A stretch of 64,000 nucleotides of DNA. Origin: a virus (lineage: Duplodnaviria; Caudoviricetes). The translations under genes were made by a program, and so were the position numbers. The DNA lies in the IMG/VR virus record IMGVR_UViG_3300014204_000134, positions 36,453 through 100,452 of that record. One strand, written 5' to 3'. Under the pieces are notes generated by a model, which worked only from the letters and a program-made list of their open reading frames with translations, had not been told where the DNA came from and ran no database searches. Positions 7,846 to 50,435 of the stretch are shown here, one piece after another (position 1 is the first letter of the stretch; each line of letters starts with the position of its first letter).

Positions 7846-7965
7846 CCATCAACCATCTCCTCACAGCAAATTTACCCCACAGAAAAATAAATAAAAAAGA
7901 GAGTGCTCTGTGAGGACAACACTCTCTTTTCTCTAAGCACGACTGATCGGGTCGTACAATTTTAT
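7846..7965 (-). promoter_or_regulatory. structured leader element E1 (anti-RBS loop)
   Basis: Two hairpins; loop TCCTCACAG complementary to downstream CTGTGAGGA RBS. Confidence 0.6.
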
Positions 7966-7978
7966 ATTAATTTAATAT

Positions 7979-8335
7979 TTAACCTTCTGTATTACTATCT
8001 GTATTATCTGTAGTAGTTATATTTTTCTTCTGCAACGCATCATAAGATTCCATACTTACACCAGCTAAAATCAATCCATTAATACTTGCTAAAAATATAT
8101 CTAAATTACTAGCTATTTGACCATTAAAATTTAACACAGAGAACAAAATGCTCTCACTCAATAATACAACCCATAACTTTGTAGGAAAACTATCTACTTC
8201 ATATTTAAAATAACTACAAATTTTCTTGAATAATAAATCTAATGCACCTTTGGAAAACTGAGTTATAACCATAATTGCTGCAACCATTCCTGCTATACTA
8301 CTTAAGGTTTCTAAAGTAAAAAATTGACCATCCAT
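7979..8335 (-). CDS. putative holin
   Basis: Three hydrophobic segments, 118 aa, directly downstream of amidase. Confidence 0.6.
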   Translation of the reverse strand: MDGQFFTLETLSSIAGMVAAIMVITQFSKGALDLLFKKICSYFKYEVDSFPTKLWVVLLSESILFSVLNFNGQIASNLDIFLASINGLILAGVSMESYDALQKKNITTTDNTDSNTEG

Positions 8336-8360
8336 ATTATAACCTCCTTATTTAACTACT

Positions 8361-9068
8361 TTATTTTGCCATCCTTGATAGCATTACCCAAAATAACCAC
8401 TGAGGAGTAGCAAGAGAAACATTACTAATATGTGATTCAGGATTTTGAATAAGTGGTTTTCCATTAATGTCTAAAATTTGAGTTAATTTATTAATTGCTT
8501 CTGCACCTTTTTGTCCCATCCAATCTTCATAAACGGGCATTGACATATCATCACCACCGATTAATAAAATTTCTGTTCTTACATCATTAACAAAATCATC
8601 CCAAGTTTTACCATGTTGTTGAAAATAACCTATAGGATCGGTATGATCTGTTTCATGCCAAGTTTCACTAACCCAAGCATGAGTATTTAGTTGATTAATA
8701 TTTGTAGGATCAAAACTATATCTAATACAAATATCTACTGTTAACCATATTGTTCTATTCCATGTTTCTTGAAATTTTGTTTCATCGGAAAAATTACACA
8801 TCTCAATCGACAAGAAACGAATATTAGCAGATTTACAACCATGCCATGCAGTTAAATTTTCAGGTAATATTTGAGTAATAGAATCATAATCTACAAAATA
8901 ATGTGCTGAAGCACCACGATCTGCATTATGAAAATATGTATTTTCGTTAGTATCACTCGCATCAGGAGTTGCAGTTTCATGAATTGTTAAACCAATAGGA
9001 CTTAAAGTAGTTCCTGAATGATTTAATCCATCTGGTAAAAAATCTTGAATTATACTATATCCTTGAAT
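8361..9068 (-). CDS. N-acetylmuramoyl-L-alanine amidase (Amidase_2 endolysin); probable ATT start
   Basis: Frame extends upstream of 8813 through IHETAT, ASAHYFVD and AWH to an ATT at 9068 behind AGGTGA; also SIEMC and H..H.DP motifs. Confidence 0.85.
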   Translation of the reverse strand: MQGYSIIQDFLPDGLNHSGTTLSPIGLTIHETATPDASDTNENTYFHNADRGASAHYFVDYDSITQILPENLTAWHGCKSANIRFLSIEMCNFSDETKFQETWNRTIWLTVDICIRYSFDPTNINQLNTHAWVSETWHETDHTDPIGYFQQHGKTWDDFVNDVRTEILLIGGDDMSMPVYEDWMGQKGAEAINKLTQILDINGKPLIQNPESHISNVSLATPQWLFWVMLSRMAK

Positions 9069-9381
9069 CTAAATCACCTACTTGTTGGTTGGTATTATTT
9101 GTAGTTGTATTTATATTATTTTGATTTGTCCCTATAGTTGAAACCCCACCATATCCACTATTTCGACTATAATAACTACTAAAACCATAAGCAATAGAAC
9201 CTACTCCATTAATACCTGCTACATAAAAGGCAATCCCTTTTATTAAATCTACATAAACAGCATCTATTGGTTGATTTGTAGCATAACGATATGTTATATA
9301 TGCAAAACCAATTATAAAACAAATCATTAACCCACTAATTTTCATTTCATCTGCTGATAAAAAATTTCTCAATCCATTCAC
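9055..9381 (-). CDS. holin-like membrane protein
   Basis: Two hydrophobic segments; in lysis cassette. Confidence 0.5.
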   Translation of the reverse strand: MNGLRNFLSADEMKISGLMICFIIGFAYITYRYATNQPIDAVYVDLIKGIAFYVAGINGVGSIAYGFSSYYSRNSGYGGVSTIGTNQNNINTTTNNTNQQVGDLDSRI

Positions 9382-9393
9382 ATTTTCACCAAC

Positions 9394-10437
9394 TTAATAG
9401 TAAACTATAAAAGCACTTTTGTATCCAGCACTCTTTATCTTATCTCTTAATATTTGTGCATCTATTTTATTTTCACATTTACCAACTTGAACTTTATGAT
9501 ATGAATTAATATAATATATATAAGCATTAAAACCCTTATTAATTAACACAGTCTTAGTATTTATAGCATTTTTTTCAATTTTATAATTACCTACTTGTAC
9601 CCTATAATATTTAGACGAAGGAGGTAGTGGAATAGGGTTTTTAAAATCTAATTCTATTGCATATGCTTCAAATACATATGGCATATTAAAATCTTTTTCA
9701 TGTCCTTCAAAAAATTTCTGCGACATAAAATAATGTCCTTTAAGTCCCCAATCATCTCCCCATGAATTACGAACTTTAACAAAACTAGTTAAGGTTATTC
9801 CATCTTTATATGTATAACTTAAATTTTTATTATAAGCTAATCCGAGAGTTGCATGTCCCCCATCAACAGTGCCTTCTGGCATACATAAAAATCCACCATC
9901 TTCAGGATGATAAAAACTAGTAGTTACAATTTGAGCAAAAAGAACTGGTTGATAATGAGATATAGCATGACAAACTTCGTCCCAAGTTTTAACTAAAGAA
10001 TATCCTTTAATTTTATAACCTAATGCTTCTTCCAATGCCTTTTGTGGTACTTTTGGTAATGGTTTTGACATCATAGAAAAAGGCATTGTTTTTTCTAAAC
10101 ATATTCCTTCTTTTCTTGCAATTTCTAATAATACTTTTGGGTACGTTCCATCTTCATTAAATTCTCCGTCTTCTTCTTTGGCCCTACAATATCCCTCGCA
10201 AACACTAGCAACATCAGGAGCATTATTTATTTTATTTTGTGCAGATAAAGCACCACAAACTGCTTCACTTACGCAACAAGGCCAAACATCTTGATCAAAA
10301 ATTGGTGGAAACAAATGCTCTATACTAAATTCGTCTGGTATATTCTGTAAATGCTCATCTGCTAAAGAAAATTTAATCGGATATTTATGAAGTTTCTTAT
10401 CATATGGCGAAGGTTTACATTTCCAACTTTTAAACAT
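9394..10437 (-). CDS. papain-family (C1) cysteine peptidase with C-terminal SPOR domain
   Basis: DQ....CC catalytic Cys region, GGHA, RNSWG..WG; C-terminal YRVQVG...NA / KVQVG...A..L...G SPOR pattern. Confidence 0.85.
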   Translation of the reverse strand: MFKSWKCKPSPYDKKLHKYPIKFSLADEHLQNIPDEFSIEHLFPPIFDQDVWPCCVSEAVCGALSAQNKINNAPDVASVCEGYCRAKEEDGEFNEDGTYPKVLLEIARKEGICLEKTMPFSMMSKPLPKVPQKALEEALGYKIKGYSLVKTWDEVCHAISHYQPVLFAQIVTTSFYHPEDGGFLCMPEGTVDGGHATLGLAYNKNLSYTYKDGITLTSFVKVRNSWGDDWGLKGHYFMSQKFFEGHEKDFNMPYVFEAYAIELDFKNPIPLPPSSKYYRVQVGNYKIEKNAINTKTVLINKGFNAYIYYINSYHKVQVGKCENKIDAQILRDKIKSAGYKSAFIVYY

Positions 10438-10449
10438 TAAATTCCTCCC

Positions 10450-10872: not shown

Positions 10873-10993
10873 TTGAAATTAATCACCCTTTCATGGTATA
10901 ATAATTTCAACTCCTTTCAATGCACATTATTGATAGGGGAGAGGAGGGGAGTGGTTGGGTGAAACTGCTCCCCTCTGTTTTGTCGAATAATAT

Positions 10994-15797: not shown

Positions 15798-16946
15798 TTA
15801 AACCACCTCCTTAATTAAATCATTTTTAGTTATTTTTCTTAATTCACCAAAATTATATTCTTTTTCATATTGAGAACAAATTATTTTACCATTATCAATA
15901 TCAAAATGAATCCATGAATGACCTGAATTTAAGTATTCTTTAGCATATTGAATTATTTCTATTATTTTATCATCTTGTGGTATTTTGTCCGTTATAGATA
16001 TTATTCTTATTTCTTTCCAATTATTATTATATAAGGCATACCATCTTTTCCTTTGTCTTTCATTAAATTCCTCTTTTGTTTCATTACCTAATTTAACACT
16101 TAGTTCATGCCCTCCAAAATCACATTCAATATAAATCATTTCTTCTGTAAATGCTATATCTAAATTACATCTACTAAAAGGATAATTTAATTCTCCACCT
16201 ATAAGATTATAAATATATTTTTGTTGATTAGAACAAGGAGCGGTACCATTTTGATATAATGTTTTTATTTGCTTCATTTTTATTTCAGTATTTTCACAAG
16301 GTGTTTTAGTTCCATACTTTGATAAATTAGTATTTACTTTTTTATTTTTAAACTCTTCTACTTGTGTTACATATTCGCAACCATATTTATTTAAATTTGT
16401 TTTTCTTAGTTTATCCAATCCTTCTTTAGTATTTAAATAGGTTTTTGCTCCATATCTTTGCATGTTTGTTTTTAAGGCACGTTCTTTTGATTCGTTTGTT
16501 TGTGAATAAAATTTATGATTGTATTTTTCATAGTTTGTTAATATTGCTTTATTTTTTATATCTTCATTTTTCATTGGATTATCAACACCATAATTATTCA
16601 ACCATGTATTTTTAGTTTTATTTTTCACATGTATTAAAGAACTTGTATTTTCTACGTTATACTGTAATAAATTACTCTCTTTTCTTTTAATATTTCTACA
16701 TTCCATACAACAATCTTTATGTATTATACTATTTATATTTTGTTTAATATATTCGCAATATGTTTTAATAAAAACTCTACCACAATAATCACATTCTACT
16801 TCAACTTTTATTTCACTGCCAGTTGATAATTCACTAATATATACTTCAAATTCATCTTTATTTTTTGTATAAATATATCCTTTATTTTCATAATATTTTT
16901 TGTTTTTTGGATTCCATTTTACTTTTATAATTTTAGTTTTTAACAT
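15798..16946 (-). CDS. free-standing endonuclease (KYG-repeat domain plus Vsr/DUF559-like nuclease)
   Basis: TNL.KYG repeats; C-terminal LDIA...IECDFGGH...W..IRI; N-terminus shared with 6643 and 30285 proteins. Confidence 0.7.
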   Translation of the reverse strand: MLKTKIIKVKWNPKNKKYYENKGYIYTKNKDEFEVYISELSTGSEIKVEVECDYCGRVFIKTYCEYIKQNINSIIHKDCCMECRNIKRKESNLLQYNVENTSSLIHVKNKTKNTWLNNYGVDNPMKNEDIKNKAILTNYEKYNHKFYSQTNESKERALKTNMQRYGAKTYLNTKEGLDKLRKTNLNKYGCEYVTQVEEFKNKKVNTNLSKYGTKTPCENTEIKMKQIKTLYQNGTAPCSNQQKYIYNLIGGELNYPFSRCNLDIAFTEEMIYIECDFGGHELSVKLGNETKEEFNERQRKRWYALYNNNWKEIRIISITDKIPQDDKIIEIIQYAKEYLNSGHSWIHFDIDNGKIICSQYEKEYNFGELRKITKNDLIKEVV

Positions 16947-17065
16947 ATAATCAACTCCTAACCATTGAGTTATTCTAACTAAAAAAGAAAATAAAGAAGG
17001 AGAGGGTTAGGATTATATTCCTCTCCTTATCAGTACAGTTGCGCTTCCGTACCTATCTTTATTTG
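16947..17065 (-). promoter_or_regulatory. structured leader element E2
   Basis: P1 AAATAAAGA/TCTTTATTT encloses GTACGGAAGCGCAACTGTAC and a hairpin whose TCCTAACC matches RBS GGTTAGGA. Confidence 0.65.
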
Positions 17066-17072: not shown

Positions 17073-20000
17073 TTACCATCTATTTTCTTCCATATCCTTC
17101 CAGTACCCAAATATTATTGTCGCTAGATCCTTCATTGCCATTTCGTTTGCTATAATATTTCCAGCATTTACCGAATATGACATATAATAGTTGGCCGGCA
17201 TGCTGCTTTCATACACAGTATTCTCTATCCTACTAGTCACCGTAGGTGTTATATTCTCTAATTCGGCAATATTTACATGTAATATACTCCCTAACGTTTG
17301 TGTCACAGAATTTAAACTATTTATTATTGAATTACTAAGAGAAGTACTTAGTCCACTTTGTAATTGTGCCATTATTACAGGTAATTTTTCTAAAACATTT
17401 GTTACAACCATAGGGATTGAGTTGAGGGAAGATTCTATTAGTTGACCCAATATCCCCCCAAAGTCACCAAATTGTGCAATTCCTGTTTCTATAGCGTCTC
17501 CAAACTCAGTACCACTAAAGAACGAGAATGCATCTTCGCCCATTTCGCTTAAAGTACCCGCCCATCTCTCCTGAACATCACCAAACGCATCCGTCAAAGT
17601 TCCAGACAAGTTAGCAAATCCTGAATCACTAAATATATCATCCCACATTGATTGCTGATTAGTTATCAAATCAACCATTGTTTGACTCATTTGTTCTTTT
17701 AGTTTATTAAATACTTCATCAGCAACTTCGCTACTTTCTTTGAGTATTTTACTTACCTGACCAGTAACAGTATAAATTTTATTTCCAAATTCATCCAATG
17801 ACTCCGTAAACAAATTGTCAAAACTAAATATATCACTAAATACACCTTTCAATTTTTCAGCAATTTCAATTTGTTTATTAATCTCTTCTAATTGTTCTCT
17901 TAAATCTTCAGCAGTTATAGGAGTTTGAGCCAAATCCACATTAATACTTGTTATTTTACTATTTATTTCAGTTAAAATTGCATCCAAATCAATATAACCC
18001 TGATTAATACCATCTATTAAACCTTCTGTAGTTGCTATTTGACCAACAACAGAATCATTTAATATTTGTGTATCAGAGATATTACTAATATAATTTTGAA
18101 TATCTTGTAAAATTCCACCAATTTGAGCACGGACACCTTCTGCTTCTTCACTAGTATCCGTAAAAAATCCATCTTCCATTTTATATATATCTTTATTTTC
18201 ATTATATAAATCTTTTATTATATTAAAATTGGTGATTAAATCCTCTTTTACATTTTCAAATCCTTCAAAATTATCAGTATTAGTTAATTCACCTATAATA
18301 GCTGATATACTATCAAAATCAAAAGTTAAATAATCTTTAGTTCCTGTCTCAACAGTTTCTGCTATATCCTGTATCGCACTACTATAAGTAGCAACACTGT
18401 CTAATAAAGAACCAACTTGATTATTAAATTCAGTAGTCATTTGCTCAAAACTAGTATAATCTGCTGAATCACTAATAAAATCTTCCCATGCTAATTTTAC
18501 TTCACCTAATTGTTCAATCATATAAGACTTAGCATTTTCAAATCCTACATATTTATTTGGATCATTCAATTCAGTAGCCATACTTGTAATTATTGATGCA
18601 AAACTATTTCTTAAAGAACCAACATTTTCTTTTGTTATTGTATCAAGGTTAATACTCCTTAAACTATTATTAATATATTCTTGTAATGGTGCTGCTAATG
18701 TCGTTGTTGTTTCTGTTGTCGTTTCTGTTCCCATGCCGAAATATTGTTCTATGAAATTCTTTAAAGGAGAAGCAAATGCTGTTTCATATTTTGCATTTTC
18801 TAAATCTTTTAAATCCTGTTCTAGTTTTGTTTTATATTCTGCTAAACCTTCTTGAACATCACCTGTATTAATTTTAAATTTCATTTCTTCTAAAGATTTT
18901 TGTTTATTTAATAATTCATCAATTTTACTTTTTTCTTCATCTATTCTTTGTTGAATATTATATTGTTGTAATTCTAATGGATCTGTTGGAATATCATCAT
19001 ACAAATGATTATATTTATTATATAATTCGTCAAAATAACTTCCAAATTGCTCATTAAAATCCATACTAATTAAAGTATCTTTAAAACCTTCAACTGTAGA
19101 AGTTAAGTCTTCTAGTTTTTTAATTGCACTATCAATATCTGCAAAAACCGAAGCAAACAATTGTGCTTGCTCTGTTGTTTGTGCTAAACCACGATTTAAA
19201 TCTTCAACACTACCTAATAAATATTGATATTCTTTTCTTGCTCGTTTTAAAATCTCAATTTCTGCTTCAGTAATTGTACCATTAGCTTCTTTTGCTTCTA
19301 ATGTACTTATTAGCCGTGATAAACCATTAATCTGTTGTGTTATTTGGTTTAGAGCAGTTCTACTATCTTGGATTTTTTGTATACTAGCATTATACATACT
19401 ATCTAGACTAGATAATCCGGTTCTAAAACTTTCTAATAGTTGCTCAAATGGTTCTAAATTTTTATTTTTCAAATAACCAACATTTTTAAAAATATATTTT
19501 TCAAAATCAATACTTTCTAGACTTTGTTTAAAATTATCACCAATATTTGATAATAAAGTATTTAATTCTTCTAATGATTTTAGATTGTATAATTTTAAAA
19601 TATCATTAAGTGCGCTTGCAGCGTTTGCTGCTGCCGTTAAATCAGTAGTAGTACCAGCAATTAAACCATTTATTGTTTCTAATAATTCAGGAGCCAATTT
19701 ACCATCTTTAATTGCTTGATTGATAATATCAACTATACTTTGCAATTGAGCAGACGCATCCTTATAGTCATCTTTTCCTGCCCATTCAGCAATTTGCGCT
19801 ATCATTTGATCTCTATAATCTAATAATGTTTGAATATTACCATCATTTAGATCTCCAGCTAATTGATTAAAATCAAATTTCATTCTTTCTAATTCTTTTA
19901 CTTGACTAACTAAATCATCAATTTTAGTCTTTGTTTTTTCTAAGTCAGATTGTAAAAATCCTAATAAATCACTAGGAACATCTTCAAACATATTTATAAA

Positions 20001-23000
20001 AGAACCATAAGCATTCTCAAATTGTTTTTCAAATTCTTCATCAATTTTTGAAGTCTCAATTTTATCTTTTATACTATCTAAACCATCAGAAAATAAACTA
20101 ATTATATTGACAGCAGGTAATGCCATATCATTAAATACTTTTTTTATTGCATTTGCTACTTCAATCTGATGTGCTAAGTCTGCTTCTGTTTCAGTATTTT
20201 CTCCTGTTGTGTCCGCTGTAGGAGAACCACTTCCATATTCAGACTTCTTAGCTTCTAATTTTTTTTCTTGTTCTTCTAGTAATTTTAAGAAATTTACTGT
20301 TGAATTATATAACTTTACTAACGGATCTGATTTAATACTCTCATCTAAATTATCCCATCCACTTGTAATTTTACTAATTATATCATCGCCATATTTTTCT
20401 TTTAAATCTGTTTCAATACTGCTTTTTAAATTTGTATATTGAATTACTTTAGCATTAAGATCTGCTAATTTAGCATAAAGATCTGTAAGAGAAGTTATTT
20501 TTGTGGGATCATAATTAGCATCTATATATTCTTGTTGACTTTGAGCATTTTTTTCTATTAATTTAACAAATTCACTAATTATTGCTGCTCTATCTTCTTT
20601 CGTTGCTTTTGAAATCTGTTCTAATATTTTATCAAGATCACTACCACTTAAAATTTTATTTTCATAGCTTTTTAAAAATTCAATAAAATCAGCTAAAGTA
20701 ATTTCTGTGCCTGTTGGTTTTGTTAGGTCTGTTGGATTATCTGTTGGTTTTGTGTTTATTGGGTCTGTTGTATCTGGTGGTTCTGTTGGTGTCGTTGGCT
20801 CTGTAGGTGTTGTAGGTGTTGTTGGTGTTTCTGATATAATACTTCCTAAAAGTTTAGCTATTGCTTCTCCTGCACTTACAATACTAGTATTTAAAGTCTT
20901 ACCAACAGAAGCTCCTGCAATAACAAAACCACTACTAACAGAATTACCAGCATCAATAATTGCATTTTTCATGTCGGTAGCAGCATCTTCTCCACTATTA
21001 CTAATAGTAGTACCTAAAAGATCCGCTAATTCACTACCACCCGCTGCAATTGCTTCTTCAATAGTTGCGCTTATATTTTCTATAGTAAGACCTAATGAAT
21101 CTAATATAGTTTGAGTTGAATCAACAATTGCTTGTGCAGCCATCATTTCATTTTGTATTCTACTCTCTTCAAGAATATCTTTTTCTGTTTGTTTTAATTC
21201 GTCTAATAATTCACTTACTCTATTTGCCTGTTCATCTAATAATTGTTTTAAATTATCACCAACAACATTGGCAGCTTCACCATATTTACCTTGATCTAAT
21301 AAATTTTGTATATTTTTGCTAGTATCTTCTTGTAATTTCTCAACAGCGTCAAAATAGGCTTGATATTTAGCCTTAAACATTGCTTCAAATGCTTTATCTT
21401 CTTTTCTTTGATTTATAGATTCATATAATGAATCAAGTTCATTTTTTAAGCTTTCTACTTTACTCTTTGCTTCATTGAATTGATCTTGAATTAATTGTGC
21501 ATATTTTTTTATTTCATTTAATCTAGTAATATTTTTTAATAAATCTGCTAAATTACCATTAATTCCTCCTAATGCTGCATCAATTGCAGCCATTGCATCT
21601 GCAAAATTACCAGCATCTAAAGCGTCAATTGCTTTTTGTAAATTTTCAAGTTGTATTAATGCTTCAGGGGTTAATATACGTTGTTGACTAATTTCAGTTA
21701 TAATACTAGTTAATTCAGTCTTTAAATTTGCTGCTGCTGCATCAATCTCGTCTATAGAACCTGTCCATAGTAATTCATTAAATTTATTTAAAGGTTCTGT
21801 TAGTCGTGATATATAAGGAGCAAGTTCGGGAATAGCAGTTATCTTTTGTCTTAATTCATCTATTTTAGTACCATAACCTTCAATATACTCTTGTGCCATT
21901 GCCCAATAATCTTCTTCGCCCCATTGTGCCCATGCTTTCCTTACTGCATCAACTGTTTCCCATTCTTTGTCAGTTAAAGTACCAGTTCTCCATTTGTCAA
22001 ATAATTGACCTATTTTTGACATATTTCCATTATCGTCTATAAATGTTGCTTTTTTATATAAATCAGTTAATGAAGTAGTCCATAATTCACTATATTGCAT
22101 TATATCTTCTGTTAGTTCGTTACTTGTAAAATATGAAGTTATATTATCTTTGATTGCTTTAATTTGATCTTCTAAATCTTTTCTATATTTATCAAAACTT
22201 TCTTTTACATTACCCATTTTAAAATCAAACTTTAATCTTTCAAGTTCTTTGGCAACATCTAGTAATTCAGAAAATTTGTCTTTTGTTTTTTGTATTAAAG
22301 CGTCTATTTTGTCAACAGCAGTAGCATCTTCATCTTCAAAAGCACTAAGAAAATCTTTATATTTTTCATTAAACATAGAATCAAATATACTATCAAATTT
22401 TAAAGTTTTTAATTTTTCTTTAGTCTCTTCAATTCTATTATTAAATTCTGAAACAGCATTTGCAGCTTTTTTAATTAATTCGTAATTTTTAAATGCTAAA
22501 AGAAGAGAATTACTATCTCTGATAACATCTTCAATTGTTAAACCATATTGTTTTAATACTGCAATAATTTCAGGATCTAATTTAAGTTTCTCAAAATCTA
22601 TTTTTTCCTGATCAGTTAATGTTCCAGATAAACTTTTACCAATCAAATCAAAGAATTTTGTTCCTTTGTCGCCCAAATATTCTTCAAGACCTTTTTTAAC
22701 TTTCATATATTCAGACATTCTTTCTTGTGCAGCACTTAATATTTGATTAGCAATATCTTCTGGTGTTCCAAATAAATTAAAATTAAACATCTTATTTAAT
22801 TCTAATTTATCTAATGCAGAAATTATCTCATCACCTATATCAGAAATATTTTGTCCTATTTCTAATTTTTTATATTGTTCATTCATTTCTTTTAATTTCT
22901 GAACAGATTGAGTTAATTCGTTATTATAATCTCCTAACATTGCGGTTATTTTTGCTACAATTTGCTGTTGTGAATAACCTTCTTTTGACATTGCAGATAT

Positions 23001-26000
23001 AGCAGAATTCATATCTGCTTGTACTTCGGAAGGTAAATCTGCTATTGCATTTCTAAGTTTTGTTAAATCATCTGCATATTTAATATCAAATTTAATTCTT
23101 TCAAGTTCTTCGATATCACTCATCATATCTTGAATTTTTGATTTTAAATCATCTATTTTACGTTGAAATGCTTCTAGTTCATTAGCTGGTTCACCTGCTA
23201 ATGCATTTTGAACCCAACCATATTTAGATTCCATCATATCGTTAAATTGATTATCTAATTGCATATTTTTTATTTGATCTGCGAAGGCTTTCATTTTTTG
23301 TTGATATGAATCAAGCATTGATTGAACTGATGACTCTTGCTCTAGCATTTTTTGATTAAATCCTATATTATTTAATAAATCTTTTGCTTGTGCAGCAGTT
23401 AAACCAAATTCAATAATCTTTTTACGTGCTTCCTCAATTTGCGCCTGTAATTCTTTATATTTCTCAGAACCAACTTCTAATGTACTTAATTTCTTTTCGT
23501 CTTCAATCATTTGCAATTTAAGATATTCTATTTCACGATATTTTTTATATTTTTCTATTAAAGCATTGTTCTCTTCTTGTAAAAGAGAAATATTTAATTC
23601 AGCTTTAGCACGTTCGTTTTCATAATCAGAATTAAATGAATTAGTACCAGTATAGGTACTTTTAATTATTCTATCTGTATCAATATCATATATACTTTTT
23701 TTATAATTATCATTCATTTCTGTAATTAAGTTTGCTATACTTTTAATCTTTTCTGTATATACATCTAAAAAATCAGTTTCTTTCCATAAATCTTTAAATA
23801 TTTTAGTTTCTTCATTTAAATTTTGCTGGTCTAATTTATTATCTTTTAATTTTTGAGCAATATTATCCATTGCTTCAGCAACATAAAATAAATCTTCTTT
23901 TTCCTGACTTGTAATATTACCAGCAGATTCTTTTGATTTTAATTCTTCATATATTTTTTTCTTTTGAAGATATGAATTCCATAATTCAGTTTCTTTTGCT
24001 TGTAATTCAGGTAATGCTTTTAGATTTTCAAAATATGCATTTTTTAAATTGTTAATCTGAGATACATCAAATTCCAAGTTTTTAACAAAATTATTCATAG
24101 GAGACATAAATGCATTTTCATTAATTAGTAATGGTTTAATATTCTTATTCATATCAATTTCTGCTAATGATTCTCTAAACTTTTTACCAATATTATCTAA
24201 TGAATCAGATAATTTTTGTATGTTTTCTCCCATATCAGCTAAAACTTGAAATCGTTGAGTTTTTAATAATTGTTCTTGTTGTAACTCACCTAGACTTGCT
24301 TGCTCTTGTTCGAGTTTTCTAATATAATCAAGAATATCTGAGTAAGAATCTAAATATCGTTCATTATTTTGAATATTAGTCTCAATTGCTTGATTTCTTG
24401 CTTCAATTGCTTCAATATGCCAATCTTCATTCCCTAAAGGTTTATTTAAACCAAATTTTTGCAATTCTGAATTAGTTGTTCCTGTTGCCCAACCTGCTAC
24501 ATCTGCTGCATTACCATAATTATGTTGACTATTACCAGGGGGAGCAACCCACTTTCTTGCTTCTGCTTCACTACCATATTTTGCTAATGCTTCTTCCCAA
24601 AGTTGTGCTTGTTCTTCAACCGATCTAAAACCAGAATTAATTTCAAGTATTTCATTTTTATATTTTGCTAATGATGCAAGTCTTTTTGCTAATACAGAAT
24701 CTAATTGTTGCCAATCACCAGACAACCATTCAGAAGGATTAGCATTACCTTCCATGTAACTAGACGATAATCCAGCAGAAGAAGAACCTTTAGGTGGATT
24801 ATTTTGTATATTATGTAGTTTAGCTGTCCAATCAATTATCTGCTTTGTATATTCACTATTCATGTCAAAGTATTTATTTAAGGCATCTGTTTCTATTTTT
24901 AGACGTTCTCTAAGAATATCCATACCTTCGATAATGCCGAAATCAACTTTTTTGTTGAATAGTGCAAGAGATTCTACATATTCTTGATTGAATTTTTCTA
25001 ATGGTGTTTGTACTTTTTCTAGTGATTCTTGGAGAGAAGAGTAGGATTTGGAAGCTGAATCGGATTCGTTTAGATTAAGACCAAAATTACCTGAACCTAC
25101 CATATTAGCAAGTTCATTTGCCTTATTCATAAGAGAACCGTAATTACCTAGTTGTTTTTGTACTTTTGCTAATCCTCTCTGATATTCAGCAGAATTATAA
25201 GTTTCAGGAGATACTTCGGTATCGGACATATATTTATAATGAGCAAAAGTTTCATATGCATCTTGCAAGTTTTGAATACCTTCTATTTCAAGACCGAAGT
25301 TTAATAAACGTGCTTTTGTTTCAGCACTTACAATATTGCTTTTTGCTATTTGAGATTGAATAGCTGTTTGTGCTTCTGTTACCCTTGCCTGTTTTAATAT
25401 TTCAAGTGCTTCAACACTAATTGACATTTCTCCATTTTCAATATTTATTGCTTGCAAAAGAGTAGGATATTGAGCTACTAATTTTACTATTTGTTCTGTA
25501 TTTATTTTTTTACCTTCTGCTAAATCACGTAATAGCTGATTATATTCTATTATTTCAGAAGAAGATTCTTTGAATGTATCAATTAATCCTTTACTTGCTG
25601 TAGCAAAATCAGTAGTTTGAGTAGATAATTTTTTGACAGGCATTTTTAGAAAATTATCTCTAATTGCTTTCATTATTTTTTCATCAGTTATCCCTGCATT
25701 TTTTAATGATTCATTAAATTGATCTACTGCTACAGCCTGTTGTTGCCATAAATTTTGATATGCTAAGTCACCAGATTGATATTTTTTAATTTGTTCCTGA
25801 AAAGTCTTTCCAATATCTACTGATCCACTTTCAACAAAACTATCAAAAATACCTTTTAACTTTTCGGTAGTTATACCTTCCATATTACCAATCTCTTTAG
25901 TTACATTTTTTATTAATAAAAGTAATCCAGAATTATCTAAGTTTTTAAATTTTTGATCTCCTTGATAAGTCGCCAATAAACCAGATTCAATTTCTTGGAA

Positions 26001-28116: not shown

Positions 28117-28391
28117 CTTTAATACCCTCGGTTTCCCGATATTTAATAAGGGAATAGACCATACCATCATCCCTTTAGGGATGTCCCTTGGTGGTCGTTG
28201 AGAGCTTACCATATGATCTTCAAAATAAAAAAGACCACTTAGGTCTATCTCTGCTGATTGCCCAATTCTTTAGATTTTCAGATATTTAATAAGTTTCCTC
28301 CATTAAATTACTACTAAAGACTCTAAGGGGTTTCCAGCATATTCAGGATTTGCTTATATTATTACTAATATAAGGGACTATTAGTTAATTA
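28117..28391 (-). ncRNA. group I intron (275 nt, no ORF) in tape measure gene
   Basis: P TGCTGGAAA, Q AATCAGCAG, R TCAACGACCA, S GTATGGTC; P1 GGAU/GUCC with U.G at the 5' splice site; terminal G; splicing restores frame (PVW-I-VASTAIM). Confidence 0.9.
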
Positions 28392-31882: not shown

Positions 31883-33289
31883 CTAATTATTCTTTAATAC
31901 ATTACCCAATATATTATCTGCGTTTTCAACTTCCCAATACCATATTTCTAATAAATCTATATTGTTATTTTCTGCATATTCTTGTTTCCGTCTATCATGC
32001 TCCTGTTGTTTTTCAAGATTCTGTTTCGTATAATAACTTCTGCCACCATCATGAAATTCGCCTTGGTACTCAACTAATAAGTTATATTTAGGTAAATAAA
32101 AATCATATGATAATAAACCATTTCCTAACCCTACAAGTCCACTAAATGTTTTTTGCGAAATAAAATACATATTATCATTTTTATTTAATAATTTATTATA
32201 AGTTTCTTGATCAATTTCAATAAAACCATTATTCACAAAAATATCTTTACATTTTTTTTCGCCTCTAGATTTATTACACTCAGGGCAACCAGTTTCCCAA
32301 TTACTACTTCTATCAGAAATAATAGCTTTCCATTCGTATCCACATTCTTTACATATCCACCAAACCTTTTTACTACTATAAGGACAATATTCTTCAGGTT
32401 TATCTTTATTCCTTTTATAATTCCATTCTTTACTAAGTTCGGGATTAATCACTAATAAATTATAATCTTTACTAGGTAATAGATGAGCACAATAAGGACA
32501 ATTACTACCATCATTTCTACTTTTAATTGTTGCTTGCCATTCATGTCCCTTTTCGCACATCCACCAGACTTTTTTACCACTACCAGGAGTATATTCTTCT
32601 GGTTTTTTCTTATTTTTATTATAATCCCATTCTTTGCAAAGTTCTGGATTAATAAATAATAAATTATAATCCTTACTTGGTAATTGACCAACACAATATG
32701 GACAATTATTACCCTTACTATTACGTGTACTAATTTTTGTTTTCCACTCATGTTTAGGATTTTTAGAACATTGCCACCAAACTTCTTTATTACTATTACA
32801 AACTACATTATATGGTGTTAAATCACCATTTTTAGTTGGATGCCATTCTTTAGCCAAATCATGACGTTTTGTTGCAAGGCAATTTGATAAACCTGCTTTT
32901 AATCCCCTACAATAAGGACAACCAGTATTTTGTAATATACTATCCCAAATTACTTCAAATATTTCTTCGCAATTTTCTTTTAAACACTTCCATTTTAATT
33001 TTATATCACTTCTAATATATTCTTCACTAATTAACTCAAATGATTTATTATTTAATTTACACCATAATTTTATATTTTGAATTGTATAGGGATTAACCTT
33101 ATCAACAATTCTTGGGAAATGACCACTCCTTAATTTATCTAATGAAGTCACATAATAATATCCGTATTTATCTTTTAAAATAAGTTTAGTTAAATTATTC
33201 TTATATTCTTTACTAATTAATTCATATCCTAAATTTTCAATATTTTTTTTAACTTCTTCATATGTAAACTTTTTATTATTTTTACCCAA
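31883..33289 (-). CDS. free-standing endonuclease with zinc-ribbon repeats and DUF2726/PD-(D/E)XK-like C-terminus
   Basis: Repeats PEL.KEW...KN......S.KKVWW.C..GHEW...CPYC; YDFYLP..L.EYQGEFH...IWYWE; TTG start behind GGGGGA. Confidence 0.75.
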   Translation of the reverse strand: MGKNNKKFTYEEVKKNIENLGYELISKEYKNNLTKLILKDKYGYYYVTSLDKLRSGHFPRIVDKVNPYTIQNIKLWCKLNNKSFELISEEYIRSDIKLKWKCLKENCEEIFEVIWDSILQNTGCPYCRGLKAGLSNCLATKRHDLAKEWHPTKNGDLTPYNVVCNSNKEVWWQCSKNPKHEWKTKISTRNSKGNNCPYCVGQLPSKDYNLLFINPELCKEWDYNKNKKKPEEYTPGSGKKVWWMCEKGHEWQATIKSRNDGSNCPYCAHLLPSKDYNLLVINPELSKEWNYKRNKDKPEEYCPYSSKKVWWICKECGYEWKAIISDRSSNWETGCPECNKSRGEKKCKDIFVNNGFIEIDQETYNKLLNKNDNMYFISQKTFSGLVGLGNGLLSYDFYLPKYNLLVEYQGEFHDGGRSYYTKQNLEKQQEHDRRKQEYAENNNIDLLEIWYWEVENADNILGNVLKNN

Positions 33290-33407
33290 ATTCTCGTCCC
33301 CCAATCTCATATTATCCCGCACACTTTAAAAAATAGGGAAGGGGTGTGCAGGACGAGTACCATACCCCTTTGTCAAGCAGTTGCGCTTCTGCTTCAATCC
33401 CTATTCA
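33290..33407 (-). promoter_or_regulatory. structured leader element E3
   Basis: P1 AATAGGGA/TCCCTATT, hairpin AAGCAGAAGCGCAACTGCTT, second hairpin with CTCGTCC complementary to GGACGAG at the RBS. Confidence 0.65.
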
Positions 33408-33745: not shown

Positions 33746-33945
33746 AAAAGAAAAAGCAGACATTACGTCTGCATGTCGTGTCCAAGGGAACGCTTCTTAA
33801 CGACTCGTTCTTGCCATAGAACCATCTTACGATGTACCATATTTAAACAGGTTCAAATCCCTAAAGGTTATAGATAGCTGCCATAACCGTTAATATGGTG
33901 AGTGTCGTTCCAACCGTCCGACTCTGCTTGGACTTCCTTGATGTT
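33746..33945 (-). ncRNA. ~200-nt structured non-coding RNA of unknown class
   Basis: Promoter TTGACA-18-TACAAT (33981-33952); nested long-range stems; GTAA tetraloops; terminator GCAGAC-GTAA-TGTCTGC-T tract; raised GC. Confidence 0.65.
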
Positions 33946-34864: not shown

Positions 34865-35425
34865 TCAAACATTTTCCTTACTTGCCGCAACTTCCTGCAT
34901 TGTAATATATTCCATACATACTTTCTCTAATTTTTTAAAATCAAAACATCTTCTTGCAATTATATTTTCAGGATATTTATATTTTAATTCATAAATTTTT
35001 AAAGCATTTTTTATAATTGGTAACTGATTTATTTTAACTAATTCAACCTTTAATAAGTCAACATACTTGCTTTTTTCTTCTAAATTATTAAATGTTCTAT
35101 ATTTTTCAATGTCACTATATTTTAAATTTGTAAATAAAGACTTATGAATAGGAAACATATAATTTAAATTTATAACTGCAATGAATCTCCCATCAGCAGG
35201 ATGATATATTTTATAAAAATCAATATTTTGTTTTAGCGTTTTATGTCTTTCTTGAGGATGCGATATTTGCGTAACATATGTTATACTATTATCTACATCA
35301 AACAAAGAACCAAAAAATGGCTTAAATTTATTTAATCCATAATCCGAATTTGGTATTCTTGATTCATAGTTATTTCTTAAATAATTTAAATAATTTTCAT
35401 CTAATGTCTTCCAAATTATACTCAT
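34865..35425 (-). CDS. toxN: type III toxin-antitoxin endoribonuclease, ToxN/AbiQ family
   Basis: YLNYLR..E.RIP......KPFFG, Y...SHP...H, INLNYMFPI, RCFDFKKLE motifs; preceded by tandem repeats and a terminator; start at 35425 (186 aa). Confidence 0.88.
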   Translation of the reverse strand: MSIIWKTLDENYLNYLRNNYESRIPNSDYGLNKFKPFFGSLFDVDNSITYVTQISHPQERHKTLKQNIDFYKIYHPADGRFIAVINLNYMFPIHKSLFTNLKYSDIEKYRTFNNLEEKSKYVDLLKVELVKINQLPIIKNALKIYELKYKYPENIIARRCFDFKKLEKVCMEYITMQEVAASKENV

Positions 35426-35435
35426 TGTTTTTCCT

Positions 35436-35467
35436 AAAATAAAACGAGCTAAATAGCTCATTTTATT
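35436..35467 (-). terminator. terminator between antitoxin array and toxin
   Basis: AATAAAATGAGCT-ATTT-AGCTCGTTTTATTTT; classic toxIN layout. Confidence 0.75.
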
Positions 35468-35566
35468 AATACGATTTTGGTAGGATTCGTAACCTCTATT
35501 AATACGATTTTGGTAGGATTCGTAACCTCTATTAATACGATTTTGGTAGGATTCGTAACCTCTATT
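35468..35566 (-). ncRNA. toxI: ToxI-type antitoxin RNA: 3 identical 33-nt repeats
   Basis: Unit AATAGAGGTTACGAATCCTACCAAAATCGTATT; AGG/CCT and TACGA/TCGTA form an H-type pseudoknot. Confidence 0.85.
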
Positions 35567-35568
35567 CT

Positions 35569-35734
35569 GCATTAAAACTTCTCATTTAACGGTTGAGATA
35601 CACCGAGCATTAAACACTTAAAGTCTCCCACTTACTGGCAGGGAATCTCCTCACTTAAAGTTTTCCACTTGTAGGGCAGGAACTCTCCACACCTTTAAAA
35701 TTCCCTACTATTTGGCAAAGGATCTCCTCACTTA
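35569..35734 (-). ncRNA. four further 37-39-nt pseudoknot-like repeats (heterologous antitoxin-like units)
   Basis: Three related units delimited by A(A)GTG and one unit delimited by TTTAATGC (CGGT/ACCG plus TCTCA/TGAGA pseudoknot). Confidence 0.65.
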
Positions 35735-46944: not shown

Positions 46945-46963
46945 AAATAAATTCCTCCTTTAA

Positions 46964-48322
46964 TTAATTTAATATAATATTTAGTTTTTCTTTTACACCT
47001 TGTAAATTATTTTTTAAATCTTCAGGATATAATGCGATAAATTTCATATTGTTTTTATTGCAATAATTATTATAAAATTCAATTTTGCGATATGTTTTAT
47101 TTACATATTCAACTAATATATTTTCATTTCGATTTTCGTGAAACCATCCAAAATACTCTAATATAAAATTATTATTTAATATCCAATCTGGAATATAATT
47201 TTCTCCAGTTTCGTTATTATATATTTTATACTTTCTACTGGTTCCATAATAATTTACTTCAACATCATAATTGTCTAACATACAATGATGTATCATTACT
47301 TCTTCTTTTGAATCCATTTTTAAACCATCTCTACTTAATGGTATCTTAAAATCTAATGGATTAAAAATATTTGGATATACTTCATTTATCCATAAATAAA
47401 TATTAGAATTATAGAATTTATCTAAAACTAATGAAAATTTATGAAAACATTCTTTAATATAAGTATATGATAGAGTAGATGGGACTTTAGATAAATCCAA
47501 TTTTAGTATATCTTCTATTAACCATTTCATTGCGCTAATACGATGTTGTTTATCTTTCCAATAATTAGTAGGAATAACATTCATTTCATATTCCCTTATA
47601 TTTAATTCTGGAAAAGCAGTAGATATTGCTTTATATACCGAACAATTAAAATGTGTAATAGCGGCACCAAGATTGTTGTCATTAAAATCTTTAGTTTGTA
47701 ATTTAAGCAAATCTTCTCTTTTAGTTATATTTAATCTGTCACAAATTAACCACCGAATCGCCTCAATTAATTTACTTTTATCTTCCCAATAGTTTCTTTG
47801 AACTACATTCATTTGAAATGGTTTCCATCTATTAGGAAATACATAATTCAAATAATCATACAATATTCCATTAAATTTACCATTTACTAAACTACTCAAC
47901 CTATATTTATATATTAATTTATGAGTAAGTTTTTTGGGAATATCATCTATATTATGGATTATATTATTTTTTATTAATCTATTAATTAACCAATCTGTAG
48001 CAATTAATATATTTTCATCATTCCAAAAAGAAATATTAACATCCCAAAAATACCAATCATATATTTTAAATTCAGGAAACCACTCTTTAAATTTTTCGTA
48101 AATATTAAAATATTGAGATATTCTTATTAAATTATATTCTTTTAAAATACTTCTTAATTTTAATCCAAGTAAATCTGCTTCTGATAATTTAAGTTTTTCT
48201 AAGAATAAATACCTTATTAATATTTTTGCATTATCTTCATTTTGAAATGTTCCATCTGGAAATTTCTTTCTTGCTCCAGATAATACTTCCTCATAAATAT
48301 TTATTAAACATTTTTCCAACAA
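46964..48322 (-). CDS. DUF4046-like repeat protein with C-terminal PD-(D/E)XK nuclease domain
   Basis: IYEEVL.G..KKFP.G, repeated P.NYW......A..WLI units; DS.EE...YIPDW...LEYFG...K C-terminus. Confidence 0.65.
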   Translation of the reverse strand: MLEKCLINIYEEVLSGARKKFPDGTFQNEDNAKILIRYLFLEKLKLSEADLLGLKLRSILKEYNLIRISQYFNIYEKFKEWFPEFKIYDWYFWDVNISFWNDENILIATDWLINRLIKNNIIHNIDDIPKKLTHKLIYKYRLSSLVNGKFNGILYDYLNYVFPNRWKPFQMNVVQRNYWEDKSKLIEAIRWLICDRLNITKREDLLKLQTKDFNDNNLGAAITHFNCSVYKAISTAFPELNIREYEMNVIPTNYWKDKQHRISAMKWLIEDILKLDLSKVPSTLSYTYIKECFHKFSLVLDKFYNSNIYLWINEVYPNIFNPLDFKIPLSRDGLKMDSKEEVMIHHCMLDNYDVEVNYYGTSRKYKIYNNETGENYIPDWILNNNFILEYFGWFHENRNENILVEYVNKTYRKIEFYNNYCNKNNMKFIALYPEDLKNNLQGVKEKLNIILN

Positions 48323-48463
48323 TCCACCCTCTTAATTTATATTCCCTCTTATAAAATAAAAAATAGGGATAAAGGTAAGAGGGTGCAAACCTTATCGTCA
48401 AGGATCGCGTTTCCCTGACTATCCCTATCAACATATTATATCATATTTTATTCAATTTGTCAA
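48323..48463 (-). promoter_or_regulatory. promoter plus structured leader element E4
   Basis: TTGACA-17-(TGn)TATAAT (48463-48435) just before P1 ATAGGGATA/TATCCCTAT; loop CACCCTCTTA complementary to RBS TAAGAGGGTG. Confidence 0.7.
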
Positions 48464-48477
48464 TTATTATTTTATTT

Positions 48478-48720: not shown

Positions 48721-48732
48721 GATTCACACTCC

Positions 48733-49131
48733 TTATAATTGTGTTGCTAAAATATCATTTATTTTACTACTAACCTTTAATAAATCTTCTCTCAATGATT
48801 TTTTAGTATCACCCATGCCTGTTAACTTGTAGGCATCACTTACAATATTTGTAAGGGCACTATATTTTGTTACTTTATCTTCTTTAAGTCTTTCATACAT
48901 CCATAACCCAAGCAGATTCTTTAACTTTTCAGTTAATTCATCTGTAGTAGTAAATTGTTTTACCGTATAATCAATAGTTGCATCTTCATCAATATAAGTA
49001 ACAAAATTAGCAAATTTTGCTTGAATATATTTATCACACTTCGTTGTAGGATTTTGTTTTTCCTCTTCATCTGTACATTGTGCATAAAAATAACTATATA
49101 TGTCTTCGAAATCATAAATATAAGACATCAA
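48733..49131 (-). CDS. putative head-tail connector protein
   Basis: FEDIY..F N-terminus, helical; synteny after capsid genes. Confidence 0.5.
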   Translation of the reverse strand: MMSYIYDFEDIYSYFYAQCTDEEEKQNPTTKCDKYIQAKFANFVTYIDEDATIDYTVKQFTTTDELTEKLKNLLGLWMYERLKEDKVTKYSALTNIVSDAYKLTGMGDTKKSLREDLLKVSSKINDILATQL

Positions 49132-49174
49132 AACACCTACTTAATAGGAATAAAAGGGAAGTTTTATCTTCCCT

Positions 49175-49489
49175 TTACGACCCAACAGCAATCCAATTTG
49201 CAGTTACCGAACTAGTTGAGGTAGTTGCAGTATACAAATAAGTATAGCAATTTAATATGATATAACCTGGATCAGTACTCAATATTGCAGTACAATTAGC
49301 AGGAGCAGCACCACCAGTTGAAGGAGCAGTAGTAAGATTTGCTACAGCACTAACAACAGTATTAAGACCAGTATTTACAGCAAGAGAGTGTCCTGCACCA
49401 GTAGTTGTTACAGCAGTTGCATTTCTAGCAATTTTTTCATTACCATTTATGGATATTACTGTATTATATTTAAGTTGAAAATCACTCAA
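49175..49489 (-). CDS. putative virion decoration protein
   Basis: Ala/Thr-rich, ends ANWIAVG. Confidence 0.5.
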   Translation of the reverse strand: MSDFQLKYNTVISINGNEKIARNATAVTTTGAGHSLAVNTGLNTVVSAVANLTTAPSTGGAAPANCTAILSTDPGYIILNCYTYLYTATTSTSSVTANWIAVGS

Positions 49490-49526
49490 TTGATTTAACC
49501 TCCTTTACTACAAGGATAACAAATAT

Positions 49527-49802
49527 TTACCTATAGTCCTGTTTTTCTCCTAAGAATCTAAAACTAGCAGCAGTACTAGCTGTAGTATAATAAATCTTAT
49601 AAACAGGAAACTTCATATCATTAAGAGATTCGCCAGCTTTTAAAGTAAAATAATTACTTTCTGTAGTACCACCATCGAAATTGAAAGTGATAGTACTAGT
49701 ACTATCATTAACAAGAAGATTTGTTTTCTTAGTATCAACAGTACTATATCCTTCACTAGTAGTTGCATTTGTTGCAACAGAAACATGATATTGATAAGAC
49801 AT
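49527..49802 (-). CDS. putative virion protein
   Basis: ND....I.FNFDG....FTLKAGE motif; RBS AAGGAGG. Confidence 0.5.
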   Translation of the reverse strand: MSYQYHVSVATNATTSEGYSTVDTKKTNLLVNDSTSTITFNFDGGTTESNYFTLKAGESLNDMKFPVYKIYYTTASTAASFRFLGEKQDYR

Positions 49803-49824
49803 CTATAAAAACCTCCTTAATATT

Positions 49825-50289
49825 TTATTTTTCATTTCCACTCTTTTCTAATTCTGATAATTCATCGTCATAAACAACCATTCCAGTAACCTTTTCAATA
49901 AAATCAATTTTACTGCGTGGTAAATCATATTTTCTTGCAGCTTCAACTAACTTTTCTTTAGAATGATGTTCAGTTACTTCGGACAATCTTTCTTTAACTG
50001 CTTTACTAAGACTACCAGTAATTAGTTTTTCAAATTCTGCAATAGAAAAAGTATTAGCACTTCTGACAGCATAACCCAATTCTTGCAACAGTTCTTTTTC
50101 ACTTTGATCTATTTCGAGCAAACCCTTAGAAAAACTTTTACTAGTAGCATTTACGTGATATAACTCATTAAGAGGAACAGGTTGGTATCCATCTCTAGTA
50201 ATAGGAATTATCCTATTAGTATCTGAACAAACAAAATAATGAGTACCCTTTGTTCTATTATAAACCTTAACTTTCCTGTCATCCGACAT
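49825..50289 (-). CDS. conserved phage protein following major capsid gene
   Basis: KVKVYNR...F..GLL.I...I..IEK.TG pattern; synteny. Confidence 0.55.
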   Translation of the reverse strand: MSDDRKVKVYNRTKGTHYFVCSDTNRIIPITRDGYQPVPLNELYHVNATSKSFSKGLLEIDQSEKELLQELGYAVRSANTFSIAEFEKLITGSLSKAVKERLSEVTEHHSKEKLVEAARKYDLPRSKIDFIEKVTGMVVYDDELSELEKSGNEK

Positions 50290-50435
50290 AAATTAAATAC
50301 GACACATCCTTTATAATTTTAAATTTAATTGTTCCTTAACACATAGATATAAAAATTAAATAAAAGAAGAGTATGAATTAAAGGAAATCATACTCTCGTC
50401 AATAATTTCATGACACTTATCTATCTTTTATTTGA
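50290..50435 (-). promoter_or_regulatory. structured leader element E5 / capsid-gene terminator
   Basis: P1 AAATAAAAGA/TCTTTTATTT, GTCA..TGAC hairpin, second hairpin loop TTCCTTTAA complementary to downstream TTAAGGAA and TAAAGGA. Confidence 0.55.

Follow-up and report, generated by a model that had tools for sequence, protein, structure and literature searches.

A candidate family of three-way-junction leader RNAs with gene-specific loops in front of homing-endonuclease genes of Firmicutes-type phages

Five leader elements, E1 to E5, lie in the final 64 kb of the 100,452-bp IMG/VR virus record IMGVR_UViG_3300014204_000134; this 64,000-nt stretch is the window analyzed here, and the whole genome refers to the ~100-kb record. 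All five lie on the minus strand, the one that carries the genes of that region (Table 1). Reading and folding bear out the five positions and the single architecture proposed in the initial annotation: in each element a small hairpin (P2) precedes a long one (P3), whose loop measures 11-18 nt, and the tail is U-rich; every fold is more stable than its shuffled sequences (z -2.3 to -3.7). E4 folds as a three-way junction at -23.5 kcal/mol (z -3.7). A closing stem (P1) is present in E2-E5. E1 does deviate from this layout, as had been noticed: its closing stem, described as weak, is absent altogether. E1 is also not found by the covariance model R1 introduced below.

The genes behind E1, E2, and E3 encode clear homing endonucleases. 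Four of the five elements had been placed in front of nuclease genes; this is less certain for E4, whose gene has weak nuclease matches (phrog_945 "endonuclease," 1.7e-4; Phage_endo_I, 0.012), and the gene behind E5 (154 amino acids) gave no PHROG match and no clear Pfam match. E5 may be an orphan leader or may serve a non-nuclease gene. On the upstream side, P3 and the U-tract of E2 form a canonical terminator behind a 3674-amino-acid gene, and P1 of E3 overlaps the TAG stop codon of the preceding gene. E4 starts right at a perfect consensus promoter, as first described, with a predicted transcript start ~7 nt downstream of the promoter, at P1. The gene ended by the E2 terminator hairpin is a single open reading frame (ORF; window 17073-28097, minus), presumably coding for a giant structural or tail protein.

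Table 1. Leaders, target sites, promoter and downstream genes (window positions; SD, Shine-Dalgarno sequence; R1, covariance model)
Feature	Position	Strand	Details
Gene behind E1	6643..7845	minus	homing endonuclease; phrog_12131 3e-13; paralogue of the E2 gene, 26% identity in homologue alignment
E1 variant leader without closing stem	7894..7965	minus	P2 = GUACGAC-CCGAUCA-GUCGUGC
E1 P3 (predicted terminator)	7916-7908	minus	14-nt loop carrying TCCTCACAG (range of this segment)
E1 targets	7858..7882	minus	CTGTGGGG 7882-7875 (one G·U); CTGTGAGGA 7866-7858 = SD
Gene behind E2	15798..16946	minus	DUF7487 homing endonuclease; Pfam DUF7487 4e-19; phrog_12131 9e-46
E2 leader	16990..17064	minus	P1 AAAGA/UCUUU; P2 loop AAGCGCAA; R1 40.4 bits, E 5e-8
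E2 P3	17012-17005	minus	14-nt loop carrying TCCTAACC (range of this segment)
E2 targets	16945..16980	minus	AGTTAGAA 16980-16973; GGTTAGGA 16963-16956 = SD; GATTATAT 16952-16945 including AT of ATG
Gene behind E3	31883..33289	minus	homing endonuclease; DUF4379 treble-clef repeats; phrog_559 HNH endonuclease; start set at TTG 33289
E3 leader	33332..33406	minus	P1 AUAGGGAU/UCCCUAU; P2 loop AAGCGCAA; then UUUUUU; R1 27.4 bits, E 2e-4
E3 P3	33357-33351; 33352-33344	minus	18-nt loop with CTCGTCC (first range) and CCTGCACAC (second range)
E3 targets	33293..33324	minus	GTGTGCGGG 33324-33316 pairs with 3' loop segment; GGGACGAG 33300-33293 = SD region before TTG 33289
Gene behind E4	46964..48322	minus	452 amino acids; DUF4046 N-terminus (Pfam 8e-9); weak endonuclease-like matches in C-terminus
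E4 promoter	48435..48463	minus	consensus sigma-A TTGACA-17-TG-n-TATAAT; hexamer matches 12/12 plus TG extension
E4 leader	48362..48429	minus	P1 AUAGGGAUAG/UAUCCCUAU; P2 loop AACGCGA; then UUUUUU; R1 40.5 bits, E 5e-8
E4 P3	48385-48376	minus	loop carrying CACCCTCTTA (range of this segment)
E4 targets	48325..48351	minus	copy 1 TAAGAGGGA 48351-48343; copy 2 TAAGAGGGTG 48334-48325 covering SD of TTG-started gene
E5 leader, after major capsid gene	50360..50430	minus	P1 AAAAGA/UCUUUU; P2 region with GUCAUGA; U-tract next; R1 29.3 bits, E 7e-5
E5 P3	50385-50379	minus	loop UUUCCUUUAAU carrying TCCTTTA (range of this segment)
E5 targets	50307..50339	minus	TTAAGGAA 50339-50332; TAAAGGA 50313-50307

In each element the P3 loop holds an exact complement of the ribosome-binding-site (RBS) region of its own gene, confirming what had been noted initially: TCCTCACAG/CTGTGAGGA in E1 (9 nt), TCCTAACC/GGTTAGGA in E2 (8 nt), CTCGTCC/GGACGAG in E3 (7 nt), CACCCTCTTA/TAAGAGGGTG in E4 (9-10 nt), and TCCTTTA/TAAAGGA in E5 (7 nt). 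Pairing the loop of one of the five with the region downstream of another gives 3-6 nt only. The E2 loop offers a second 8-nt complement, ATATAATC/GATTATAT, that extends into the ATG start codon. A second, partial copy of the target had been reported upstream of each RBS; a complementary upstream site is real, but GTGTGCGGG of E3 is no copy of the target and complements a second, adjacent loop segment, CCTGCACAC (one G·U). Similarly, the complement in E5 is exact, but its target lies 20 nt before the called ATG of the 154-amino-acid gene, right next to a mini-ORF of four codons, and so lacks the usual spacing of an SD sequence. This mini-ORF (window 50305-50291, minus; ATG TGT CGT ATT TAA) directly follows the SD-like TAAAGGA targeted by E5 and stops 3 nt short of the gene's ATG; the two could be translationally coupled.

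The elements could be ordinary terminators or 5' stabilizer hairpins whose pyrimidine-rich loops match purine-rich SDs by chance: a U-tract follows all five, four of them end an upstream gene, and any CCUCC-like loop complements any SD to some extent (cross-pair baseline 4-6 nt). Among 42 terminator-like hairpins in the whole genome, a set that does not contain the P3 of E4, however, E1, E2, E3, and E5 occupy ranks 1-4 for loop-to-downstream complementarity, and the remaining hairpins have small loops with AT-only complements of at most 6 nt. Together with own-pair complementarity that exceeds cross-pairs in every permutation, covarying gene-specific bases in the flanks, and a model built from other phages that picks out these elements specifically (see below), this makes a chance origin extremely improbable.

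The gene specificity of the loops was assessed on 27 leaders, five from the window and 22 foreign, each a three-way junction by minimum free energy (MFE). An unrestricted comparison of upstream sequence with the RBS was swamped by AT-rich matches and uninformative, and a test restricted to the loop was used instead. The duplex energy of the P3 loop with its own downstream region averaged -8.7 kcal/mol vs. -5.2 for foreign regions, and the longest exact complement averaged 6.2 vs. 4.1 nt; neither value was reached in 20,000 permutations (0/20,000), so that the loop/RBS covariation in homologues, proposed at the outset as a check, is present. In relatives of the E2 nuclease the loop and its target change together, as in CCGATA/TATCGG, CCGATTA/TAATCGG, CCTATA/TATAGG, and CCGTTAC/TAACGGG, and further pairs of this kind are ATTCACTCC/GGAGTGAA and TCTCTACAC/GTGTAGAGA. 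Leaders contain on average 1.76 loop-complementary sites, compared with 0.66 in cross controls. Relative to the start codon, the distal site is typically at about -28 to -38 and the proximal one at -11 to -21, a spacing of 15-21 nt, and the gene-specific bases co-vary at three places, in the loop and in both sites. A variant topology occurs in three loci (L017, L020, and L022), ~60-110 nt before a nuclease start at position 1501: the terminator stem encloses the hairpin with the palindromic loop, and the 3' internal loop contains the anti-RBS sequence, with two downstream complementary sites kept (e.g., TCTCTACAC with GTGTAGAGA and GTGTAGA).

Related leaders were found in other phages by three routes. 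The protein collection contains 296 homologues of the E2 nuclease, and an alignment of 34 of these was used to fetch 80 IMG/VR loci; in the 170 nt upstream of many of their nuclease genes the same leader layout recurs in quite different sequences. A gene-independent search of IMG/VR with the pattern TAGGGATAG-N38-62-CTTCCCTAWT returned 35 stretches (27 unique), 24 of which are real leaders with P2, P3, and targets. A nearby downstream ORF is present in 21 of the 24, and 19 of these ORFs are endonuclease genes (HNH, DUF4379 with NUMOD, DUF7487, HNH_repeat, and endonuclease VII-like), 16 by their own family matches and three by clear kinship to those; the other two gave no family match. As the linked genes fall in several nuclease families, the scaffold is common to unrelated nucleases. 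Run against 596 Gb of bacterial genomes, this pattern had 41 matches, of which one, in Lysinibacillus, was judged a real member; most of the others inspected looked like chance, the inspection covering part of the 41 and not L129 (Fictibacillus).

Thirdly, 12 leaders of other phages, with none from this window, served to build a covariance model, R1. Alignments of all members with MAFFT lost the stem register, which was remedied by building the model from a coherent subset and realigning. On the whole genome R1 found exactly E4, E2, E5, and E3 (E 5e-8 to 2e-4); E1 went unseen at E <= 1. On 500 kb of loci it gave 65 matches, and the distinct leaders that it finds in other loci number ~45. In the alignment of the 65 matches 95.4% of stem cells are paired vs. 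74.6% after shuffling, 17 of the 19 stem pairs show changes on both sides, and the stem covariation score is 0.534 vs. 0.191 (0/500 shuffles), with slid controls at or below 0.117. R1 also matches seven of 151 genomes sampled from the family of the leader-bearing Lysinibacillus; the eight matches that were fetched are arranged much as the other leaders are, a -10 box lies directly before most of them, and the start of the closest ORFs resembles nuclease N-termini. Taken together, the conserved cis-acting RNA element that was suspected to travel with mobile nuclease genes is supported, and from sequence and predicted structure we regard E2-E5, with E1 as a degenerate variant, as a portable family of 60-80-nt three-way-junction leader RNAs before free-standing homing-endonuclease genes of Firmicutes-type phages.

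The family does not correspond to a described one as far as we could find. Rfam 15 gave no match at the gathering threshold in the window and 20 related loci, and a permissive scan of E4 returned sub-threshold chance matches of microRNA or small nucleolar RNA type only; neither the leader motif nor DUF7487 was described in the literature searched. Several other routes gave nothing: megablast of 6 kb against GenBank phages produced no match, the major capsid protein as a query retrieved no related loci, an exact pattern from the P2 loop of E2 and E3 had a single chance match in IMG/VR (in a high-GC coding region), other intergenic three-way junctions in this genome lack the family features, and relatives were too diverged to supply an empty allele, without the nuclease gene, from which to map the cassette edges. 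A hammerhead ribozyme of type III (CUGANGA, GAAA, UH) was considered and rejected, with a P3-P1 strand of 0-2 nt, no GAAA, and no Rfam hammerhead match; J2/3 resembles UGANGA only in E4 and E5.

One locus informs on the edges of the module. In IMGVR_UViG_3300025010_000216 (L175, positions 3804-3897) a leader with a promoter, a three-way junction, and the P2 loop TAGCTA stands at the site that in a related phage (L172) is taken up by a leader and a DUF7487 nuclease. Behind it lie ~270 nt of non-coding DNA with no nuclease gene and no loop-complementary sites. Leaders can therefore be orphans, and a breakpoint can fall at the junction after P1.

The second loop is conserved in a different manner. 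The small-hairpin loop had been noted as one sequence in E2 and E3 and another in E4, and AAGCGCAA is indeed shared by E2 and E3; across the family it is a palindrome that is conserved while its sequence varies. In the window the palindromes are GATC (E1), GCGC (E2 and E3), CGCG (E4), and TCATGA (E5); further examples in the family are TTCGAA, TTGCAA, TGATCA, GTCGAC, TGTACA, TCGCGA, TAGCTA, TAATTA, GTAATTAC, ATCGAT, and TTATAA. The P2 loop measures 7-10 nt and its palindrome 4-8 nt, usually flanked by purines. A palindrome of at least 4 nt is present in 17 of 18 unique P2 loops (null 5.6) and one of 6 nt in eight (null 1.0), while P3 loops contain no 6-nt palindromes. There is no enrichment of an intramolecular partner for the P2 palindrome and no second copy nearby. 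Since a 6-nt palindrome is unable to pair inside its own 7-10-nt loop, an intermolecular loop-loop kiss is the simplest reading, and the pattern suggests that P2 loops form a kissing-loop dimer.

Gene-specific repeats and palindromes could also be DNA sites, with the loop and its downstream complements as an operator triplet bound by each endonuclease for autorepression, as with I-TevI, and P2 as the site of a dimeric DNA-binding protein. Autorepression of the I-TevI type through operators that mimic the homing site is established (PMC2988022), the gene-specific sequences are repeated near the 5' end of the gene, and the entire P2 is a DNA palindrome. The stems, however, contain 40 interior G·U pairs vs. 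three A·C single mismatches, and G·U is used in several loop/target pairs as well (L027, L066, and copy 1 of E1). DNA sites or decaying DNA palindromes would give G·T and A·C about equally, so the G·U excess indicates RNA rather than DNA. The sense strand also folds more stably than the antisense strand (mean -20.8 vs. -18.7 kcal/mol, p 0.01). Stems covary in structure and not in sequence, purine-purine mismatches are retained beside the palindromes, and one layout serves unrelated nuclease families with different DNA-binding modules. The operator triplet, raised as an alternative in the initial annotation, is disfavored by the G·U/A·C asymmetry, and we consider the DNA-level explanation very unlikely.

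The position of promoters and tails bears on how these RNAs would be made. A -10 hexamer ends 3-10 nt before P1 in 23 of 43 distinct leaders, and at least six T within 10 nt after P1 are found in 34 of the 43; judging from these sequences, many leaders are probably the 5' end of their own sigma-A transcript. A sigma-70 scan found no own promoter for E1, E2, E3, and E5, and none nested on the gene strand between junction and RBS, although the phage's own polymerase may use other promoters. As predicted terminators, E1, E2, and E5 have a G+C-rich P3 stem with a U-tract, and E3 and E4 a P1-closed junction followed by UUUUUU. The full-leader MFE structures of E3 and E4 are a long nested hairpin in which the SD is paired: its site is taken by the P3 loop, and the upstream site by the P1 3' strand or the second loop segment. 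In E4 (-34.1 kcal/mol) the partner of copy 2 is the P3 loop, and that of copy 1 the P1 3' strand. Read-through transcripts adopting this fold would be locked.

Such a promoter-proximal order of three-way junction, U-rich tail, and RBS is also what a sensing leader would look like. The junction nucleotides (UAG; YGAYAA or GUAAUWAA; U) might be the binding site of a small molecule or of a factor from phage or host, and binding would stabilize P1 and thereby decide, as in a riboswitch, whether the pyrimidine-rich P1 3' strand and the P3 loop are free to mask the SD. The junction strands are conserved among members with differing stems, and the alternative fold of E3 and E4 swaps P1 and P3 for long-range pairing with the two downstream sites, both of which speak for such a device. 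Against this, the junction sequences differ by subtype (AGGGAUAG, AUGGUU, and AAGCAGA types), no candidate factor can be named, Rfam offers no match, and gene-specific and palindromic loops are atypical of riboswitches. We judge a sensing function quite unlikely.

The leader might instead act in trans. A discrete RNA of ~65-75 nt, released by the promoter-proximal junction and U-tract, would kiss the full-length nuclease mRNA by P2; its P3 loop would then cover the RBS site, with the upstream site bound by the loop of the mRNA itself, and the consequence would be repression that depends on copy number or time, like plasmid antisense control or type I antitoxins. E4 combines a perfect promoter, the junction, and U6; promoters directly upstream and U-rich tails are common (23/43 and 34/43), the palindromic P2 loops lack an intramolecular partner, and two target sites per leader would fit the two loops of a small RNA:mRNA pair. 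These points are offset by E1, E2, E3, and E5, which lack their own promoter, by the kinetic advantage of cis over trans pairing, and by an "AUGG" subtype that has a single target and is palindromic too, so that a stoichiometry of two loops and two sites is not general. A trans-acting leader RNA is accordingly rated as rather unlikely. A small RNA with a scaffold and a variable guide, proposed at first as another alternative, is improbable as well: the loops are 6-10 nt and aimed at the own SD.

We favor, as a model that is probably but by no means certainly correct, a cis-acting translational lock that keeps the nuclease scarce by means of a P3 loop tailored to its own SD-proximal region and, usually, to a site 15-21 nt further upstream. 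The exposed loop would pair in cis with these sites, as a pseudoknot or, in E3 and E4, by refolding to the long nested hairpin, and this pairing would hinder 30S binding. In this phage the junction or P3, with the U-tract behind it, would also stop most transcription arriving from upstream late genes (E1, E2, E3, and E5) or from the strong promoter of E4 itself, and nuclease would then be made only from the rare transcripts that are both read through and unmasked. With a self-complementary P2 loop two leaders can probably kiss, as can a terminated leader and a full-length mRNA, and the lock may in this way be adjusted to the RNA concentration. The analysis shows the fold and its covariation, the gene-specific covariation of loop and target, the palindromic loops, the RNA-strand asymmetry, and the association with nuclease genes; from these we infer translational repression, termination, dimerization, and any switching, and likewise what the P2 palindrome and the upstream site do, including the decoy role first proposed for the latter. 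It is conceivable, if doubtful, that the leaders are self-dimerizing programmable riboregulators, in which the P2 loops kiss, the two P3 loops clamp the two covarying targets, and translation is set by the concentration of leader RNA. If true, the leader RNA would be a sensor of copy number or infection time, and the module, carried by unrelated selfish nuclease genes, would be re-addressed by changing one loop.

Several observations weigh against a simple lock. The stronger partner of the loop is the SD-proximal site in this window and the upstream site in many IMG/VR members, and the single target of the "AUGG" subtype lies beside the SD core without covering it. The SD may thus be masked only in part, and it is even possible that pairing activates translation. 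The target of E5 is off the SD distance from the called start, and its gene encodes no recognizable nuclease. U-rich tails are expected in AT-rich DNA, so that termination is to be proposed only in clear cases such as E2 and E4. Full-leader MFE predictions vary among members, and the alignment behind the covariation values was fitted to R1's own structure.

Elsewhere in the window, other intergenic features were noted. At 35470-35580 (minus) three tandem copies of a 33-nt unit, aatagaggttacgaatcctaccaaaatcgtatt, are followed by a small terminator and an ATG, resembling a repeat array before a gene; the ORF called at 34865-35572 probably starts further in. The stretch at 33764-33900 (minus) is G+C-richer and ORF-free, with several nested hairpins and a GCAGACG-taa-TGTCTGC terminator just before the gene at 33763, and may be a structured RNA in its own right. 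The intergenic gap of 287 nt after the 3674-amino-acid ORF (28098-28384) can form stable branched folds on either strand (about -23 to -26 kcal/mol) and contains a terminator at 28232-28246.

Homing endonucleases need expression just sufficient to spread without harming the phage. To our knowledge, the control of homing-endonuclease expression outside the T-even phages is largely unknown. The family described here would be a modular RNA solution common to several unrelated nuclease families in Firmicutes phages and prophages, with a fixed scaffold, one loop re-addressed to the ribosome site of each gene, and one loop kept self-complementary. It provides a testable case of three-way covariation between a loop and two targets and a possible natural instance of RNA dimerization in phage gene control. 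The leaders flag mobile nuclease cassettes and could thus aid annotation, and the compact programmable design could serve as a synthetic translational lock.

Among known systems, structured RNA just 5' of an HNH-type nuclease gene, with a variable segment, is also found in HEARO/IscB omega RNA. That RNA is 200-300 nt long, with a 5' guide to DNA outside the element, whereas the leaders are 60-80 nt, with a 6-10-nt loop directed to the SD of their own mRNA; the HEARO model, like all Rfam models, stayed below threshold in the window and the 20 loci. Three-way-junction riboswitches, such as those for purines, share the promoter-proximal P1-closed junction, the U-rich tail, the RBS, and possible alternative pairing of the P1 3' strand. 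They differ from the leaders, which have no Rfam match, subtype-variable junctions, and loops that are gene-specific or palindromic instead of docking with each other. Kissing loops are known from the dimerization initiation site (DIS) hairpin of HIV-1, and OxyS-fhlA and plasmid antisense RNAs are two-site kissing regulators. P2 resembles these in its 7-10-nt loop with a purine-flanked 4-8-nt palindrome whose self-complementarity is kept as the sequence varies; unlike them, the kiss is a prediction here, set in a phage mRNA leader with its second contact, the P3 loop, aimed at the own RBS.

The closest parallels are in the T-even phages, where the homing endonucleases I-TevI, I-TevII, I-TevIII, segB, and mobE are silenced by RNA structures that sequester the RBS, these masks being simple hairpins with a nested late promoter (PMC2988022). 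I-TevI in addition represses its own transcription via an operator that mimics its homing site (PMC2988022). With the operator, the leaders share gene-specific short repeats at the 5' end of a homing-endonuclease gene that limit, or here would limit, expression; it is a protein-DNA device, whereas the G·U/A·C asymmetry, structure-only covariation, and unrelated nucleases point to RNA-RNA pairing here. As with the masks, a cis RNA structure that travels with a selfish nuclease gene is predicted to pair with the SD, and transcripts from upstream are predicted to be poorly translated. In contrast to the masks, the anti-RBS sequence sits in a hairpin loop borne by a conserved three-way-junction scaffold, for pseudoknot or long-range pairing, usually with a second complementary site and a palindromic second loop, in phages of Firmicutes-type hosts; the promoter, where present, lies upstream of the entire structure, with none nested by the sigma-70 scan. 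By analogy, the leaders would extend the T-even principle (PMC2988022) with a different, conserved scaffold.

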